From Chthonomonadaceae bacterium (lineage in GTDB: Bacteria; Armatimonadota; Chthonomonadetes; Chthonomonadales; Chthonomonadaceae): a DNA stretch of 57,519 nucleotides. The notes beneath the pieces are model-generated. The model worked only from the letters and a program-made list of their open reading frames with translations. It ran no database searches and was not told the DNA's origin. This document shows positions 1 to 54,117 of this stretch, one piece after another. Both the position numbers and the translations under genes were made by a program. The stretch's first letter is position 1, and the number at the start of each line of letters is the position of its first letter. Location of the stretch: NCBI GenBank assembly GCA_035650735.1, contig DASRGZ010000123.1, positions 1 to 57,519 on the forward strand, read 5' to 3'.

Positions 1-302
1 CCGTTCCCCACTGCCAGGGTCGGCGCTACAATGGTTCGGGTCACTGCCAGGGTCGGGCCTGCAATAATTCGGCCCTCCGCCTTGCGACACCTTACGGCCC
101 TACTGCGTTCGCTTCGCTCACAGGGAAGGGGGGGACCCGACCTGAGATGGTTGCGGCCCTCACCTCCTGTCCCCCTCTCCCACGCTGCGGGCGAGGGGGA
201 ACGGAGAAGCCAGGGTTTGCCTCTGCCTGCACAGGCAGAGAGTCTCGCCCACGTAGGTGGGCAGCAGGCCGTAGGCCCCACAGCGGCAGGGTTTAGCCTG
301 CC
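1..302. repeat. Mosaic of REP-like hairpin modules containing two nested 45-bp units (10-97)
   Basis: Modules CCCTCACC..CCCCTCTCCC..GGG(A/C)GAGGGG, CTGCCTGCACAGGCAG, GCCCACGTAGGTGGGC and GGCAGGGTTTAGCCTGCC recur at 27849-28020, 45673-46011 and 53791-54097. Confidence 0.9.
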
Positions 303-4090: not shown

Positions 4091-4103
4091 AAAGATAACC
4101 TCT

Positions 4104-4128
4104 TAAGGATGAAGGATGAAGGATGAAG
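4104..4128 (+). repeat. Tandem heptamer array (GGATGAA)x3, left arm of inverted pair
   Basis: TAAGGATGAAGGATGAAGGATGAAG; inverted relative to 4493-4539. Confidence 0.9.
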
Positions 4129-4138
4129 CTATTTTTGG

Positions 4139-4498
4139 CTACGCTCTTTTGATTCTCTTAACCATGGTCACCAAGATAGCGGTCAGTTGCTCCGTTTCAT
4201 TTCGTATGGATACCAGGCGTTCGTATGAGACGATCCCGGCGTCGCTTAATAGTTCCAGCCAATAGCCCGTTTCCTCCAATTCCTGTAAACCTCCCTCTAA
4301 TTTACTGATGAGGTCCGCATCAGATTTTGCACGCTGTGCTTCACGATAATGCGCGCCAACGGATGTTCCCGAACGTAACACCTGTCTCCCAAGCACCTGC
4401 GCTTCGGTGGTTTTCGGTAATGTCACATATAATCGTATGATCTGTAATGCAAACGCCTTGGTTCTCTCGCGTAAACTCCGCTCTGCCCCATCTTTCAT
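4139..4498 (-). CDS. Four-helix-bundle protein (23S rRNA IVP/TIGR02436-like)
   Basis: RTKAFAL..LGRQVLRSGTSVGAHYREAQRAKSDAD..ELEETGYWLELL signature; AT-richer than neighbours. Confidence 0.92.
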   Translation of the reverse strand: MKDGAERSLRERTKAFALQIIRLYVTLPKTTEAQVLGRQVLRSGTSVGAHYREAQRAKSDADLISKLEGGLQELEETGYWLELLSDAGIVSYERLVSIRNETEQLTAILVTMVKRIKRA

Positions 4499-4539
4499 CC
4501 TTCATCCTTCCGCCTTCATCCTTCATTCTTTATCCTTTA
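4493..4539 (-). repeat. Tandem heptamer array (TTCATCC)x6, right arm of inverted pair
   Basis: TTCATCC TTCATCC TTCCGCC TTCATCC TTCATTC TTTATCC; abuts the stop codon of the AKR gene. Confidence 0.9.
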
Positions 4540-12576: not shown

Positions 12577-13869
12577 ATGAACCGCCAGCGTCCCGTCCTG
12601 CCCCGCCCCTCGGCGTCGCCGGGTTCCACCGATTTTGTGTGGGCCACCGGCATTGAGGACACCTTCATCAGCCAGCCTAATCCCCGTACCGGGCGTATCA
12701 TGGACGAATACGCGCTCACGCAGCACTATGACCACTGGCAGGAAGACCTGAGTTTGATCGCCGCGTTAGGCGTCCCCGCCGCCCGGTACGGCATTCCCTG
12801 GTATCGCGTGGAGCCGCAGCCCGGCACGTTCGACTGGAGCTGGACGGATCAGGTGCTGCCCGCGCTGGTCAATCAATACGGCGTCGAACCGATTGTGGAC
12901 CTGATGCATTACGGCACGCCCGCCTGGCTGGAAGGCTCTTTCCTCTCCTCCGAATATCCCGACCGCGTTGCCGAATATGCGCGGGCCTTTGCCGCCCACT
13001 ACAAGGGCCTCTGCTACTGGTATACCCCGCTCAACGAGCCGCGAGTCAATGCCTGGTACGCGGCGCGGCTGGGCTGGTGGCCGCCCTATCGGCGGACGTG
13101 GAGCGACTTCGCTGCCGTCCTGGTCGCCCTCTCACGCGGCATCGTGGAAACCCAGCGCGCCGTTGCCGAGATCGAGCCGCAGGCCGTGTTCGTGCATGTA
13201 GACGCCACAGACCTCTACAAAACCGCTGACGCCTCGCTGGTCGAAGAGCAGACGCTGCGGCAGGAACTGGTCTTCTGCGCGCTCGATCTGGTGCAGGGCC
13301 GCGTGGATGAGACGCATCCGCTCTCTGGCTGGCTGCGCAAGCACAGCATCTCGGTCGAGTCGCTGGAATGGTTCCGGCGGCATCCGGTGCAGCCGGACAT
13401 CATCGGATACAATATGTATCCGATGTTCAGCGAAAAGCACGTCCTGCGTGCGGCCAATGGGGGCGTGGAGGTCAAGATCAAGCCCTGCTGGGTAGAAACC
13501 TTTACCGAGCTGACCCGGATGTACGCCCGGCGCTATGGCCTGCCGGTGATGTGTACGGAGACGGCCAGCACCGGCCTGCCCAGCAAGCGCATCCGCTGGA
13601 TTGAGGATTCGGTGGAGAGCGTCTATCGTCTGCGCGCCGAAGGGGTTCCCGTCGTCGGCTACACCTACTGGCCGCTGTTCTCGCTGGTCGCCTGGCCCTA
13701 TCAGCGCGGCAAGCTGCCCTTTGAGGAGTACCTCATCCATATGGGCCTCTGGGATCTGCGGGAAGACCCGGAGCATCCCGGCAACCTGCGCCGCGTCCGC
13801 ACCAAGACCGTGGATGCCTACAAGCAGGTCGTCGCTTCGCCCGTCCCTCCGCTTGCCAGCAGCGCATAG
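12577..13869 (+). CDS. GH1-family glycoside hydrolase
   Basis: WATGIE, HYDHWQEDL, RYGIPWYRVEP, TPLNEP, CTETA, VVGYTYW. Confidence 0.87.
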   Translation: MNRQRPVLPRPSASPGSTDFVWATGIEDTFISQPNPRTGRIMDEYALTQHYDHWQEDLSLIAALGVPAARYGIPWYRVEPQPGTFDWSWTDQVLPALVNQYGVEPIVDLMHYGTPAWLEGSFLSSEYPDRVAEYARAFAAHYKGLCYWYTPLNEPRVNAWYAARLGWWPPYRRTWSDFAAVLVALSRGIVETQRAVAEIEPQAVFVHVDATDLYKTADASLVEEQTLRQELVFCALDLVQGRVDETHPLSGWLRKHSISVESLEWFRRHPVQPDIIGYNMYPMFSEKHVLRAANGGVEVKIKPCWVETFTELTRMYARRYGLPVMCTETASTGLPSKRIRWIEDSVESVYRLRAEGVPVVGYTYWPLFSLVAWPYQRGKLPFEEYLIHMGLWDLREDPEHPGNLRRVRTKTVDAYKQVVASPVPPLASSA

Positions 13870-13902: not shown

Positions 13903-14212
13903 GCCGGGCGCTGAAAGTGCCCGTCTGTAGGGCGGCTATGCCGCCAACCGTCCTGCGGACGGGAAAACGGGCCTATCGGCAAGTGGCTGCCTTCGTAGAG
14001 AGGGAAGACCCTTCCGCAACGGGGCGTCCGCCAGTCGCAAGGCAGAACCGTGCCGCCAGGCGGCGGGGTGTGGCAAGGTGTCGCAAGGCGGAGGCAGGGG
14101 CCGTACCCTTGCCGACCCTGGCAGTCCGTTGAGGCCCGACCCTGGCAGTGGTAGCGCCGTCCCTTGCAGTCGCTTGGCCGCAGGCCCTAGAGACGGGTAA
14201 TTTATTGCCCGG
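13903..14212. repeat. REPIN-like palindromic element interrupted by a 136-bp cluster of 45-bp units (14035-14170)
   Basis: Arms match the uninterrupted copy at 32057-32191. Confidence 0.88.
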
Positions 14213-27686: not shown

Positions 27687-27848
27687 TCTCTTGCTCCTCC
27701 ACACTCGGTCGCTGGCGAATGCCTGCGCCGTTGGCAATAAAGTCCTTCCACACAACCCGGCAATATTCTCAAAATATCGGGCCGCGACCCTAAAGATCAG
27801 GCAAAAACCCGAATCACTACCAGGAAATGGAGCAAGACGAATGCTCGC

Positions 27849-28020
27849 GGCAGGCTAAACCCTGCCGCTGTGGGGCCTACGGCCCGCTGCCTGCCTGCGC
27901 AGGCAGAGAGTCTCGCCTACCTGCGTGGGCGGAACGTTCTGCCTACGCAGGCAGAGGCAAACCCTGGCTTCTGCTCTCCCCTCTCCCGCAGCGTCGGGAG
28001 AGGGGTTAGGGGGTGAGGGC
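27849..28020. repeat. REP-like mosaic without 45-bp unit
   Basis: Same modules as 156-302 in opposite orientation. Confidence 0.88.
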
Positions 28021-28096
28021 CATTGGGGATGAAGGTAGATTAAGGAAAAACACAAGGGCCCTGTGAAGGAAGAATGTGAAGGAAGAAGGAGGAATC

Positions 28097-32056: not shown

Positions 32057-32191
32057 GCCGGGCATTGAAAATACCCGGCTAGAGGGCGGCTGCGCCGCCA
32101 ACCGTCCTTCGGACGGAACACCTGGCTTGGCTGGGCGTCCGCCAGGACGCTTGGCCGTTAGGCCCTAGAGCCGGGTACTTTCAGTGCCCGG
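32057..32191. repeat. REPIN-like palindromic element (intact copy)
   Basis: 30-bp inverted arms (26/30) CCGGGCATTGAAAATACCCGGCT../..AGCCGGGTACTTTCAGTGCCCGG. Confidence 0.88.
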
Positions 32192-33982: not shown

Positions 33983-34097
33983 TGACCTAACCCCCCGGCC
34001 CCCTTCCCTAATACGTCGCTTCGCGACAGGGAAGGGGGCCGGGGGGTTAGGTCATCCCCTCTCCTGTTCTTGGGAGAGGGAACTAGAGGGTGAGGGC
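33983..34097. repeat. Two REP-like hairpins; the first is a perfect 27-bp inverted repeat
   Basis: TGACCTAACCCCCCGGCCCCCTTCCCT (33983-34009) with 34028-34054; then CCCCTCTCC..GGAGAGGGG..GGTGAGGG. Confidence 0.9.
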
Positions 34098-44673: not shown

Positions 44674-45672
44674 ATGGCTAGCGACGTCTTCAGGGCTATC
44701 GTCGTGGATAAGGCGGACGGCCAGACGCAGGCATCTCTGCAGGAGATGCCGCTGGCCGCGCTGCCGGAGGGCGACGTGCTGGTTTCCGTGGCCTACTCCA
44801 GCCTCAACTACAAGGATGGGCTTGCCGTTACGGGGCAGGGCAAGGTGATCCGCCGCTATCCGATGGTGCCGGGAATCGATCTGGCCGGGACGGTGGAGCG
44901 GTCGGACTCGCCGCGCTTTCAGCCGGGCGATCAAGTTATTCTCACTGGCTGGGGCCTTGGCGAGCAGCACTGGGGCGGCTATGCGCAGAAGGCGCGCGTC
45001 CAGGCCGACTGGCTGCTGCCGCTGCCGGAAGGGCTGAGCCTGAAGCACGCGATGGCGCTGGGCACGGCGGGGCTGACGGCGATGCTGTGCATCATGGCAC
45101 TGGAAGCGCACGGCGTCCGGCCAGAGGGCGGCGAGGTCGTGGTGACGGGCGCGGCGGGAGGCGTGGGCAGCGTGGCCGTAGCGCTGCTGGCGCGCTATGG
45201 CTACCGTGTGGTCGCCTCGACGGGGCGGCAGGCCGCGCATGCGTACCTGCGATCCCTGGGCGCTCAGGATATTCTGGATCGCAGCGTGCTCTCCGCGCCC
45301 TCGGAGAAGCCGCTGGAGTCGGCGCGCTGGGGAGGCGCGGTGGATACGGTCGGCGGCGACACGCTGGCGGGGCTGCTGCGAACGATGGGCTACGGCGGCT
45401 GCGTGGCGGCGTGCGGGGTGGCTGGAGGCAGCGCCCTGCACACCACCGTCTTTCCCTTCATCCTGCGTGGGGTGAGCCTCATCGGGATCGAGTCGGGGCA
45501 GTGCCCGCAGGAACGGCGGCGGGAAGCCTGGGAGCGGCTGGCGCGCGCCCTTCCGGCAGAGACCTTAGAGCGCATGATGCAGGTTGTGCCGCTCGATGCC
45601 GTTTTCGATCTCAGCCAGGAGATTTTGCAGGGGCGCATCCGGGGCCGCGTCGTCGTGGATGTGAATGCGTGA
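44674..45672 (+). CDS. acuI: Acryloyl-CoA reductase AcuI/YhdH (MDR family)
   Basis: YSSLNYKD, PGIDLAG, GTAGLTAML, TGAAGGVGS, PFILRGV. Confidence 0.88.
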   Translation: MASDVFRAIVVDKADGQTQASLQEMPLAALPEGDVLVSVAYSSLNYKDGLAVTGQGKVIRRYPMVPGIDLAGTVERSDSPRFQPGDQVILTGWGLGEQHWGGYAQKARVQADWLLPLPEGLSLKHAMALGTAGLTAMLCIMALEAHGVRPEGGEVVVTGAAGGVGSVAVALLARYGYRVVASTGRQAAHAYLRSLGAQDILDRSVLSAPSEKPLESARWGGAVDTVGGDTLAGLLRTMGYGGCVAACGVAGGSALHTTVFPFILRGVSLIGIESGQCPQERRREAWERLARALPAETLERMMQVVPLDAVFDLSQEILQGRIRGRVVVDVNA

Positions 45673-46011
45673 CCTAACCCCCCCGTTCCGGCAGGCTAAA
45701 CCCTGCCGCTGTGGGGCGCAGAGCGCCCGCCGACTGCCAGGGTCGGCGCTGCAACGGTTCGCGCCACTGCGAGGGTCGCAACTGCGCTCGCTCGCTCCTC
45801 CGCCTAGCGACACCTGGCGACACCCTTGTGGGCTAGACTCTCTGCCTGCGCAGGCAGAGGCAAGCCCTGGCTTCTGTTCTCCCCTCCCCTAGAATTGGGG
45901 GAGGGGATGAACGGGTGGAGGCCGCTCCCCTCTCCCGCAGCGTGGATCGCAAGGCGGAGGGGCGAACCATTGTAGCCCCGACCCTGGCAGTAGGGGGCAG
46001 GGGGTGAGGGC
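45673..46011. repeat. REP-like mosaic with three 45-bp units (45733-45820 nested pair; 45947-45991 single, minus strand)
   Basis: Alignment by eye to uninterrupted modules at 170-302 and 27849-28020. Confidence 0.9.
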
Positions 46012-46054
46012 TTTAGCCGCTCCTAAGCTCGCAGGATGGGTGAGAGCAAGAGAC

Positions 46055-48355
46055 ATGTTAAACGAGAAGAGCGTGACTGGAAAAGCGGTCGTGATCGGGG
46101 CGGGGACGATGGGCGGCGGGATCGCGGCCCAACTGGCCAACGCGGGCTGGCAGGTGCGCCTGCTCGATGTGCCCGGCCCGGACCCGAGCGATAAGAAGAC
46201 GCGCAATCAGATCGCGGCGGCGGGGCTGGATCGCGTACTCAAGAGCCGCCCGCCGCTGCTCTACCTGCCAGAGTTTGCCGAGCGTATCCGCGTTGGGAAC
46301 ATAGCCGACGATCTGGAGAGCCTGCGCGACGCCGATTGGGTGGTAGAAGCGGTGGTGGAGAAGATGGAGGTCAAGCAGGCGGTCATGGCCCAGATCGCCG
46401 CGCACGCCGGCCCGGAGACCATCCTCAGCAGCAACACGAGCGGCCTGAGCCTCCGCGAGATGACCGCCGCGCAGAGCCAGGAGTTTCGGTCGCGCTTTCT
46501 CGGCACGCACTTCCTCAACCCGCCGCGATATCTGAAGCTTCTGGAGGTCATTCCGCTGGCCGAAACCCGCCCGGAGGTAACAGAGGGCTTTCGGCGCTTC
46601 GCCGAGCGCGTGCTGGGGCATCGCGTCGTGTTTGCCCGGGACACGCCCGGCTTTATCTCCACGCGCCTCTGGATCACGCACCTGCTGGATACCATTCACA
46701 CGGCCCTGGAACAAGGGCTGAGCGTGGAGGAGGTGGACTATCTCACCGGCCCGCTGATCGGACGCCCGCGCAGCGCCACCTTCCGCATGGCCGATCTGGT
46801 CGGGCTTGACATCATCGCCGACGTGGCCCGCAACCAGTACGAGCGGCTGCCGCAGGACCCCTATCGCGACCGCCTGCGCCTGCCCGACATCCTCGACTAC
46901 CTATTGCAGGAAGGCAAGACGGGCGAGAAGAGCGGCGCGGGCTTTTATTGGCGCCAGGGCAGTACCCTGATGGCACTCGATCCACAAACGCGCCAGTATC
47001 GTCCCCGTCAGGAGTTCCGGCTAGAGGCGGTCGAAGCGCTGTCTCGGCTGCCGCTCTCGCAGCGTTTTGCGGCCCTGCGCCAGCATAACCAGGAGCGGTG
47101 GGGGCAGTTCTTAAACGCCGTGCTGGACTCTTTAAGCGCCTATGTGGAGCAGGTCGCCCCGGAGATAGCCGCCGACGTGCTCTCCGTGGATCGGGTGATG
47201 CGCTGGGGCTTTGGCTGGGAGATGGGGCCGTTCGAGATCATCGCGTGCCGACGCGAGGCCGCCGACGCCGCCCCGCGCTACTACAGCGGCGCCGGCCGGG
47301 AGCGCATGTACCGCGTCTTTGGGCAGGGCGCGCTCCAGCCGATGCCCTCGGAGCCAGAATACATCTGCCTGGCCGACCTGAAGGCGGCAGGCAAAACGAT
47401 CCTGGATTCGGAGGTCGCCTCCCTGATCGACCTGGGCGAGGACGTGGCCTGCCTGGAATACCATACCAAGATGAACACGTTCAACCCGGCGCTGGTCGCC
47501 TTCGTCCATCAGGCGCGCGAACGGGCGGAACGGGACTTCGCCGCGCTGGTCATCGGCAACCAGGGGCCGCACTTTTCGGCAGGGTACGACCTGAACCTGT
47601 TTCTGGAGACGATGGCGGCGGAGGATTGGGGCCGGCTGGATGCGCTGCTCCATGACGTGCAGTACGCCTTCCTGGGCTTGAAGTATGCGAAGATGCCGGT
47701 CGTGGCGGCGGTGCATGGCTACACGCTGGGCGCGGGCTGCGAGGGCGCGCTGCACTGCGCGGCCCTGCAAGCGGCCCCGGAACTCTACATGGGACTGCCG
47801 GAACTCAATGTGGGCGTGATTCCGGGGGGCGGCGGAACGAAGGAGATGCTGGCGCGCGCCATGGCCGATTGGGACGGCAGCGGCGACCCGTTTCCGCGCG
47901 TGGAGCAAGCGTTTGACCTCATCGCGTTTCCGAAAAATTCCAGCAGTGCCGAGGAGGCGCGCAAGAGGGGCTTGCTGCGGCCCACGGACGGCATTTCCCG
48001 CAACCCCGACCGCCTGCTGTTTGAGGCTAGAGCAAGAGCGCTCGGGTTGGCGAACGCGGGCTATGCGCCGCCCGTAAAGGAAACTATCTGGGTAGGAGGC
48101 GAGGAGACCCTGGCGCGGCTGCGGCTGAAAATCCACTGGCAGTTTCGGGCTGGCGCCATCAGCGCGCACGACCGCTTGATTATGGACAAGTTGGCGTTTG
48201 TGCTGAGCGGGGGCAATCTGCCCTACGCGCAGGAGGTAAGCGAGGACTATCTGCTGCAACTGGAGCGCGAGGTCTTTGTGGCGCTGGCCCACGAGCCGAA
48301 AACCGCCGAGCGGATGCGCCACGTACTCGCCACCGGCAAACCGTTGAAGAATTAG
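46055..48355 (+). CDS. 3-hydroxyacyl-CoA dehydrogenase / enoyl-CoA hydratase (FadN-like)
   Basis: GAGTMGGGIA, EAVVE, SNTSG, THFLNPPRY; C-terminal crotonase FSAGYDL, GAGCE, PELNVG. Confidence 0.93.
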   Translation: MLNEKSVTGKAVVIGAGTMGGGIAAQLANAGWQVRLLDVPGPDPSDKKTRNQIAAAGLDRVLKSRPPLLYLPEFAERIRVGNIADDLESLRDADWVVEAVVEKMEVKQAVMAQIAAHAGPETILSSNTSGLSLREMTAAQSQEFRSRFLGTHFLNPPRYLKLLEVIPLAETRPEVTEGFRRFAERVLGHRVVFARDTPGFISTRLWITHLLDTIHTALEQGLSVEEVDYLTGPLIGRPRSATFRMADLVGLDIIADVARNQYERLPQDPYRDRLRLPDILDYLLQEGKTGEKSGAGFYWRQGSTLMALDPQTRQYRPRQEFRLEAVEALSRLPLSQRFAALRQHNQERWGQFLNAVLDSLSAYVEQVAPEIAADVLSVDRVMRWGFGWEMGPFEIIACRREAADAAPRYYSGAGRERMYRVFGQGALQPMPSEPEYICLADLKAAGKTILDSEVASLIDLGEDVACLEYHTKMNTFNPALVAFVHQARERAERDFAALVIGNQGPHFSAGYDLNLFLETMAAEDWGRLDALLHDVQYAFLGLKYAKMPVVAAVHGYTLGAGCEGALHCAALQAAPELYMGLPELNVGVIPGGGGTKEMLARAMADWDGSGDPFPRVEQAFDLIAFPKNSSSAEEARKRGLLRPTDGISRNPDRLLFEARARALGLANAGYAPPVKETIWVGGEETLARLRLKIHWQFRAGAISAHDRLIMDKLAFVLSGGNLPYAQEVSEDYLLQLEREVFVALAHEPKTAERMRHVLATGKPLKN

Positions 48356-53751: not shown

Positions 53752-53787
53752 CCGCCTGCTAACCCCATGTTGGCAGGCGGTTTTGTT
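53752..53787 (+). terminator. Rho-independent terminator
   Basis: CCGCCTGCTAAC-CCCAT-GTTGGCAGGCGG followed by TTTTGTT. Confidence 0.75.
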
Positions 53788-53790
53788 GCA

Positions 53791-54097
53791 CCTGACCCCG
53801 GCAGGCTAAACCCTGCCGCTGTGGGGCCTAACGGCCCGCTGACTGCCAGGGTCGGGCCTACAACGGACTGCCAGGGGCGGCAGGGTTACGGCCCCTGCCC
53901 CCGCCTGGCCACAGCCCTCCGCCTTGCGACACCTACGCGGGCAGAATACCTGTTGACAACGCCAGGGGCATTACCATTACGTTCTATGGGCACTGCCTAC
54001 GCAGGCAGAGAGTCTCGCCCACGTAGGTGGGCGACGGGCGCTTTGCGCCCCACAGCGGCAGGCTAAACCCTGCCGCAAGAGAGGGCGGGGGGTTAGG
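53791..54097. repeat. REP-like mosaic (inverted doublet) with nested pair of 45-bp units (53842-53929)
   Basis: CCTGCCGCTGTGGGG ... CCCCACAGCGGCAGG inverted arms; shared modules. Confidence 0.9.
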
Positions 54098-54117
54098 TCA
54101 GGCGGGCCGGATTTCGC

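Follow-up and report, generated by a model that had tools for sequence, protein, structure and literature searches.

How does a gene-less sequence of only 45 nt come to lie inside another copy of itself? More broadly, the way in which REP-sized repeats spread to new sites is still unsettled, since insertion seldom leaves a footprint that can be read. The locus considered here lies at positions 45733-45820 of a 57,519-nt window (the whole stretch of DNA that was analyzed). Read directly on the plus strand, it comprises the left piece of one unit (45733-45765, unit positions 1-33), an intact 45-nt unit (45766-45810), and the right piece of the interrupted unit (45811-45820, unit positions 36-45, plus strand), which is a 33+45+10 partition in which unit positions 34-35 are missing. 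The inner unit was also called in a genome-wide parse. A first-pass annotation had described two further nests of this kind, one of 33+45+10 at 10-97 (plus strand; 10-42, 43-87, and 88-97), which occupies a C-rich host hairpin downstream of a GAPDH gene, and one of 25+45+18 at 53842-53929 (plus strand; 53842-53866, 53867-53911, and 53912-53929), whose inner unit belongs to a long-stem subfamily. All three partitions are present in the sequence exactly as written.

The same annotation held that the outer units become colinear with a single intact copy at 45947-45991 (minus strand) once two bases are re-added, and that the nests are not tandem duplications. Both statements agree with the sequence. 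When two bases are restored from the single copy, the outer units of the nests at 45733-45820, 10-97, and 53842-53929 agree with it at 39, 38, and 41 of the 45 positions, respectively. Because inner and outer units are identical at only 33, 35, and 29 of 45 positions in the same order, tandem duplication is excluded for these three nests. The right pieces of all three begin with CA, at a place where intact units mostly carry CG and the single copy at 45947-45991 has CG. The 10-nt right piece at 88-97 is degenerate, differing at 3 of 10 positions, and the genome-wide parser did not call it.

The nest at 45733-45820 interrupts a REP-like host repeat of family D2, whose left part spans 45689-45732 and whose right part spans 45821-45906, both on the plus strand. 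In an empty twin of this host site at 54030-54031 (minus strand), a retained CC joins the two parts. The single reference unit lies inside a C-rich REP-like hairpin, and the empty twin of its host retains CT at 177-178 (plus strand), while that of the 10-97 host retains TT at 34004-34005 (plus strand). A fourth nest, at 14035-14170 on the minus strand, is deeper and unbalanced: two left pieces (21 and 24 nt) and three right pieces (10, 18, and 18 nt) surround an intact unit at 14081-14125 (minus strand). Its host belongs to the repeat family that also flanks a Y1 gene (L001), and the empty twin of this host retains TC at 32146-32147 (minus strand). An empty host repeat at 27879-27891 (plus strand) carries two unused sites, AC at 27879-27880 and CC at 27890-27891. 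All four nests are intergenic, and no promoter or terminator patterns were found at 45600-46100. A search with the GAPDH gene near 10-97 gave matches at 54-67%, spread over many phyla. The intergenic stretches at 155-305, 27848-28021, 45679-46011, and 53780-54100 are mosaics of several REP-like hairpin families that were apparently inserted into one another. Elsewhere in the window, inverted arms of 7-nt tandem repeats at 4091-4128 and 4500-4537 flank a small ORF at 4139-4498.

The unit is a gene-less hairpin of 44 or 45 nt. From the ends inward, its outer stem (4-9:38-43) is followed by an internal loop, then by an inner stem (13-17:29-33, extending to 19:27 in one subfamily), and finally by a loop that measures 10-11 nt. 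CT at positions 2-3 is invariant, the 6-bp inverted repeat is subterminal, and conservation of the outer stem and the ends extends over three genera. No Rfam family matched the unit at its gathering score. Because the minimum free energy of single units is no better than that of shuffled sequences (z -0.37 to 0.41), the proposed fold rests on covariation. Inner pairs are Watson-Crick in 89-98% of 232 distinct 45-mers, and the most variable of them (15:31, 16:30, and 17:29) remain so in 89-93%, compared with 34-51% after shuffling. In a set of 33 distinct rows from six sources, which includes copies from the related genomes G001, G010, and G019 and from two metagenome stretches (L035 and L075), 94% of cells are paired and two-sided changes number 52 versus 15 in shuffled sets, although shuffles overstate this signal because the copies are related by descent. 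The four or five pair types seen at one position would be hard to get without either selection or correction of the palindrome. With G-U pairs in only 2 of 363 stem cells, the fold does not distinguish which strand is active.

The genome of the window (G000; 6.52 Mb, 224 contigs, 63% GC) contains 967 left ends of the unit grouped in 539 clusters, compared with 41 left ends in a reversed-genome control. Intact units number 508, including 373 of 45 nt and 118 of 44 nt, against a single one in the reversed control. For the parse, 502 units of 44-46 nt were kept, 475 of which lie away from contig ends. The first-pass annotation had proposed from three nests that insertion occurs at fixed internal positions, and this holds throughout the genome: of 363 left pieces, 357 have a length of 20, 21, 24, 25, 29, 32, or 33 nt, and of 424 right pieces, 409 have one of 10, 14, 18, or 22 nt, so that the split pieces of outer units map to five positions. 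Left pieces of 24 and 32 nt derive mostly from the 44-nt subfamily. Likewise, the rule that outer fragments sum to 43 nt was confirmed in large part, because first-layer pieces total 42 or 43 in 180 of 218 cases, compared with a mean of 34.8% and a maximum of 45% in 2000 shuffles. Second-layer pieces give the same totals in 55 of 63 cases (44% when shuffled). Among the 475 non-edge units, 179 are solitary, 114 lie in balanced nests of up to four layers, and 182 lie in unbalanced nests.

The proposed single orientation of inner units was also upheld, in that no reversed ends occur among them. An opposite-strand left end lies near only 1 of the 502 units, and it belongs to a copy that faces this unit from the opposite arm of a host repeat. 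At least one inner unit (contig C42 of G000) is inverted between its own outer stem arms while its left end is normal, which looks like the result of a later template switch. Near-perfect palindromic or head-to-head fused units, as might arise from hairpin template switching, are present on contigs C115 (3821-3870 and 7386-7415), C139, and C223 (6398-6458).

What an insertion does to its target can be read by comparing filled sites with empty ones. For 149 of 397 distinct flank pairs an empty twin exists in the genome, and the commonest gap between the flanks is 2 nt (95 of 149); the other 54 twins, with other gap lengths, reflect C-runs, one derived junction, and mismatched halves. Flanks recur as repeats in 372 of 424 composites, compared with 23% of 2000 random places, and nearly all of the remaining 52 composites are in recognizably diverged host copies. 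The target dinucleotide is absent from both junctions after insertion, and the net gain per insertion is 43 nt (42 for a 44-mer). A replacement of three bases by 46 nt would give the same gain, but at GG-flanked sites the base that follows position 45 is the G of the host, and this favors a replacement of two bases by 45 nt. No filled and empty pair at one orthologous locus was found; the empty twins are paralogues.

Eighteen target sites were listed by hand, four within the unit itself and 14 in other hairpin repeats. At the latter, which are REP-like, two nucleotides are missing as well. Thus, the earlier proposal that the element carries its own target sites stands insofar as self-insertion is real, but the unit supplies just four of the 18 sites (plus a minor one near 20|22) and the rest belong to other hairpin repeats. 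A restriction to YY sites, which the same annotation had put forward for testing, did not survive. The consensus of the 18 sites is C (15 sites), then G, C, or T, then the lost pair (YY in 15; AC, GC, and TA once each), followed by C (16), G (9), and C (13), which can be written loosely as C-S|YY|C-S and includes no conserved 4-mer. With 104,462 occurrences of so loose a motif across the genome, targeting must be narrowed by hairpin context or by selection. The 4-nt spacing of the self sites (21, 25, 29, and 33) is tentatively read here as a product of the loose motif and a loop of 4-nt repeats. Target choice by pairing with the unit's own strands gained no support: with one reference unit and 17 hand-picked sites, the best of 3272 guide and register choices reached a z of 1.56 (7-mers), which at least 4 of 60 shuffled units equaled.

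Insertion also appears to alter the bases that follow the lost pair. Right pieces of 10 nt begin with CA in 146 of 153 cases and those of 18 nt in 206 of 214 (352 of 367 combined), whereas the 491 intact units have CA at the corresponding positions in 9 cases and in none, respectively, and mostly carry CG. Right pieces of 14 nt begin with TC in 42 of 43 cases, at a place where intact units mostly have CC. The CG-to-CA difference is seen as well at site 21|24, at one other host in G000, and at one host each in G001 and G010, the last two judged against empty alleles from G000; one G001 host retains CG after the unit. The recurrence of this change at unrelated sites points to the insertion process, perhaps through carry-over of donor flank, more than to chance. 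This rewriting of junctions, the tested nesting rule, and the evidence of nest shuffling presented below are new here.

A covariance-model search that scored 92 candidates per genome detected it in 4 of 68 genomes of the order, namely G000, G001 (nine copies), G010 (seven), and G019 (one), and among the matches listed the copies in G001 and G010 are single and lie inside hairpin repeats. In a sample of 400 other genomes of the phylum no copy was found with a pattern that cannot match 44-mers, the sample being one without G001, G010, and G019, and none was found in viral contigs. Among the data sets listed as containing the unit, none was of RNA. The unit is present in at least 129 metagenome stretches, and among those listed 119 of 129 are identical to G000 over their full length, which may mean that they share source material with it. 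Of the others listed, six match G000 piecewise, two have flanks outside the assembly, and two (L035 and L075) come from other organisms. Nested left junctions occur in other organisms too, both in L035, where a 21-nt left piece is followed by an intact unit, and in a locus from G019 (L014). Together with the identical metagenome stretches, these junctions make an assembly artifact unlikely. Contigs of four sequencing runs that cover one 20-kb stretch with eight clusters (L164) represent a near-identical strain, break at repeats, and skip no unit among the joints listed.

The only unit found in G019 (L014, on contig C128 upstream of rpoB) is a tagged nest that is also known from G000, and it lies at a contig end with unique flanks unlike those in G000. 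It represents either horizontal transfer or an assembly chimera. A search of mainly open-access literature found no description of this 45-nt element.

If each layer were a fresh insertion, inner units might be expected to lie closer to consensus than outer ones, a point that the first-pass annotation had put forward for testing. They do not. Mismatches per invariant site are 0.0127 for inner units and 0.0095 for the first outer layer (n=197, p=0.17), and the first outer layer is further from consensus in 16 cases, nearer in 27, and tied in 154, which amounts to no age gradient. Moreover, among 64 distinct outer units interrupted at 25|28, the two halves pair in 42%, compared with 81% for intact units and 32% for shuffled halves. 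This low figure and the 182 units (of 475) in unbalanced nests mean that a count of nests exaggerates how many insertions took place. The 213 right pieces of 18 nt have four main heads, and the commonest intact type (84 of 491) yields no such piece, though its left pieces exist. At site 29|32, all 39 cases have the same inner loop type. Units of the long-stem subfamily (150 of 491) lack the GG|TT|CG site (25|28), and none was observed with a split at 25 or 33; they are also the most frequent innermost units (the main loop of the subfamily accounts for 70 of 197).

One nest can be followed because it is tagged by a 35-nt foreign insert. This tag gives 14 hits at no fewer than nine loci in three host types of G000, with a fourth host in G019, and among the matches listed the right piece is identical in 10 of 10, while at contig C147 the host-specific first base is kept. 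Under a rough classification by motif, the two host flanks correspond in 271 of 424 composites. We infer that interiors pass from copy to copy and that the hosts remain in place. Combined with the unbalanced nests and the lack of a consensus gradient, the recurrent tagged nest suggests that recombination between copies probably multiplied a small number of founders. The hundreds of nests may go back to perhaps eight or more such insertions into the unit. The apparent use of site 25|28 in at least four subfamilies speaks against a purely one-off origin, and the balance of most second layers indicates that shuffling is incomplete.

As a separate observation, units often carry foreign pieces of 33-38 nt between direct duplications of about 29-38 nt, which is the shape of off-target CRISPR spacer integration. 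Examples on the plus strand of G000 are found on contigs C28 (about 62640-62740) and C9 (about 13160-13240), and also on C59, C27, C38, C107, C120, C144, and others. A cas1 gene is located on contig C93, and one foreign piece was later copied with its nest to at least nine loci.

We hold, with somewhat more belief than doubt, that the 45-nt unit is a hairpin placed as a single strand by an enzyme supplied in trans, and that recombination between copies multiplied and deepened a few founder nests. In a rare first step, strand-specific insertion would exchange two target bases for the first two of the element, and the two target bases that follow would be overwritten in part, probably by the flank of the donor. 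In a frequent second step, homology would drive swaps of interiors between copies, with the conserved ends serving as arms. Such swapping would yield nested dolls of up to four layers, would produce unbalanced nests, and would erase any age gradient.

Several other explanations bear on how the nests accumulated. That each layer of each nest records a separate insertion, by an active element into a target site that it carries, is unlikely. Layers do balance far above chance in both the first and second rank, at least four heads of 18-nt right pieces match four intact subfamilies and halves pair slightly more often than when shuffled, which indicates repeated use of 25|28, and the long-stem subfamily without this site is never split at 25 or 33. 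However, the missing age gradient, the large share of units in unbalanced nests, the lone inner loop type at 29|32, and the invariant right piece of the tagged nest are all at odds with independent events. A further proposal, which we judge rather unlikely, is a mode of movement not described before, in which a 43-nt core enters between bases 2 and 3 of a four-base site while two donor bases on each side overwrite the target, in one orientation and in hairpins only, through an enzyme of its own. The unit would then be one of a widespread class of 20-45-nt hyperparasites of REPs, and the subfamily without the site would be immune to nesting and hence the commonest innermost unit.

The enzyme-free alternative, in which hairpin-rich single strands at replication forks exchange sequence by template switching or by gene conversion guided by microhomology and a little donor flank is copied each time, seems decidedly improbable. 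The palindrome-type rearrangements of units on C42, C115, and C139 fit it, no intact linked enzyme was found, and flank rewriting resembles the co-conversion tracts that PMC4478555 describes in part for yeast GC42. Set against this, microhomology alone should give variable registers, yet ends are precise and 2 nt are lost across unlike flanks, and the outer stem and ends are conserved over three genera. Very unlikely, too, is that the unit is a non-autonomous partner of an RNA-guided IS110/IS1111 recombinase. This idea would explain REP targeting, orientation, the subterminal inverted repeat, and the lack of target duplication, and the IS110-family element ISPpu9 enters REPs and has transposase-free modules according to the relevant sections of PMC12288879. 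A search of assemblies fragmented into 140-860 pieces, in which repeated elements can be missing, found no IS110 gene in G000 or G001 and one each in G010 and G019, with no unit ends at either locus. The target is also too loose for one guide, and ISPpu9 keeps its core dinucleotide on both sides in the same sections of PMC12288879, whereas two target bases are lost here. The most improbable of these routes would be reverse transcription of an RNA copy into a hairpin that has been nicked, in which the junctions lose bases and acquire non-templated changes.

Target-primed copying in general is compatible with one orientation and altered junction bases, and this counts toward reverse transcription. 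Retro-mobility has also been suggested for GC42 in the portions of PMC4478555 that treat its spread. But no RVT_1 match was found in G000, G-U pairs are nearly absent from the stems, and the unit corresponds to no Rfam family at gathering score.

If an enzyme supplied in trans places the unit, as we favor, what might it be? Our tentative choice, which we would sooner doubt than assert, is a Y1 HUH nuclease (TnpA/RAYT-like) already working on the host repeats. TnpA-REP enzymes act on one strand and cut at C|T or CA (as outlined in PMC8266576), and their integration is thought to need a REP-bearing target (as discussed in PMC3333891). The single orientation, REP-like hosts, CT at positions 2-3, and CA at the right junction fit these traits. 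Against it, plain cutting and joining at C|T or C|A would add 44 nt and keep target bases at the left junction, neither of which agrees with the observed junctions and their gain of 43 nt.

Three Y1 matches were found in G000. Two are IS200-like (NCBIfam), have motifs like those given for subclass 1.2 in parts of PMC6006769, and are flanked by empty host repeats of the REP-like kind (L001, 1435-1935; L002, 1379-1812). Although subclass 1.2 is listed as lacking REPs in the classification given by PMC6006769, these two loci differ in having REP-like repeats on their flanks. As assembled, both genes look broken, one reading HVP for HVH and the other being split over two frames. The third match belongs to an IS200/IS605-type element (L003, contig C52, 6087-9212 of G000) that consists of a broken tnpA and, by eye, an adjacent tnpB-like frame. 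Y1 proteins with an intact HUH motif are present in G001 and G010 (L166, L167, and L191). Y1 relatives occur in 25 of 41 genomes, with up to eight matches per genome, and the unit was found in 4 of 68; the presence of one therefore does not track that of the other. No unit ends were found in 38 Y1 loci of G000 and its relatives, and in G000 the 16 matches to recombinases, Y1, or Cas1 have none within 2.9 kb. The 49 frames neighboring units in relatives gave no transposase or recombinase Pfam match, and among the lone ends listed there was no autonomous parent with a gene between unit ends.

Classical MITEs have terminal inverted repeats and target-site duplications; the unit has a 6-bp inverted repeat that is subterminal, and it loses bases at the target rather than duplicating them. 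Derivatives of IS200/IS605 elements insert 3' of a conserved tetra- or pentanucleotide, and target bases are neither gained nor lost. In contrast, two bases are lost at most sites of the unit, and only the T|AC|GG loop sites can be read as loss-free. The passages of PMC3333891 on IS200/IS605 describe no target repeats. ISPpu9 and its ssr9 module, as portrayed in sections of PMC12288879, resemble the unit in entering REP/BIME sequences at a fixed dinucleotide and in having small transposase-free modules, but their core dinucleotide is found at both ends, compared with neither junction here, and their modules are gene-sized.

The unit has much in common with REPs and REPINs, which the relevant parts of PMC3116915, PMC3333891, PMC8266576, and PMC6006769 depict as high-copy intergenic hairpins with bulged stems. 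The 508 intact units, which lie within the 20-50 nt range of such hairpins, agree with this picture, as do the covarying stems, the repeat flanks, and the intergenic nests of the window. By analogy, the strand-specific processing of single strands with cuts at C|T or CA that these sources ascribe in part to REP/REPIN sequences with RAYT may extend to the unit. Unlike REPs, the unit has no GT[AG]G at its 5' foot, and GTAG or GCAG appears only on the bottom strand at 17-20, on the edge of the loop, in some subfamilies. No unit is located beside a Y1 gene, and those of G000 are flanked by host repeats instead. Unlike the inverted doublets of REPINs, units on both strands occur in just 11 of 539 clusters, mostly as one unit per arm of a host repeat. 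Finally, the unit invades REP-like repeats and loses two target bases.

Every nest interrupts a sequence that is already known, which makes the footprint legible at single-base resolution: two nucleotides are lost, the next two are rewritten, and one orientation is used, over 18 sites. This footprint matches none of the transposase types compared, and it defines precisely which substrates a bench assay could use and which product to expect. The tagged nest, in which interiors move between copies, also cautions against equating nested repeats with insertion events.

SDRs (small dispersed repeats) of Nostocaceae are reportedly 21-27 nt long with a common conserved fold. Like the unit, these repeats, which are credited to Elhai and colleagues (2008, Genome Res 18:1484), are tiny, carry no gene, and enter a short target with precision; SDR5 inserts between bases 3 and 4 of HIP1 in the accounts excerpted from PMC4390886 and PMC5861425. 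Those accounts report SDRs from Nostocaceae alone, and base loss and flank rewriting go without mention in their passages on SDRs. GC42, one of the GC clusters of yeast mitochondrial DNA, as characterized in portions of PMC4478555, is about 42 nt long and palindromic, with constrained stems, variable loops, merged or shuffled units, and putative co-conversion of flanks. It differs in its putative AG target duplication, where the unit shows a 2-nt loss, and the unit has a bacterial host and nests at fixed internal sites. The unit acts like a non-autonomous, REP-targeting mini-element, and by analogy its closest counterparts in kind are the SDRs of Nostoc and GC42 of yeast.
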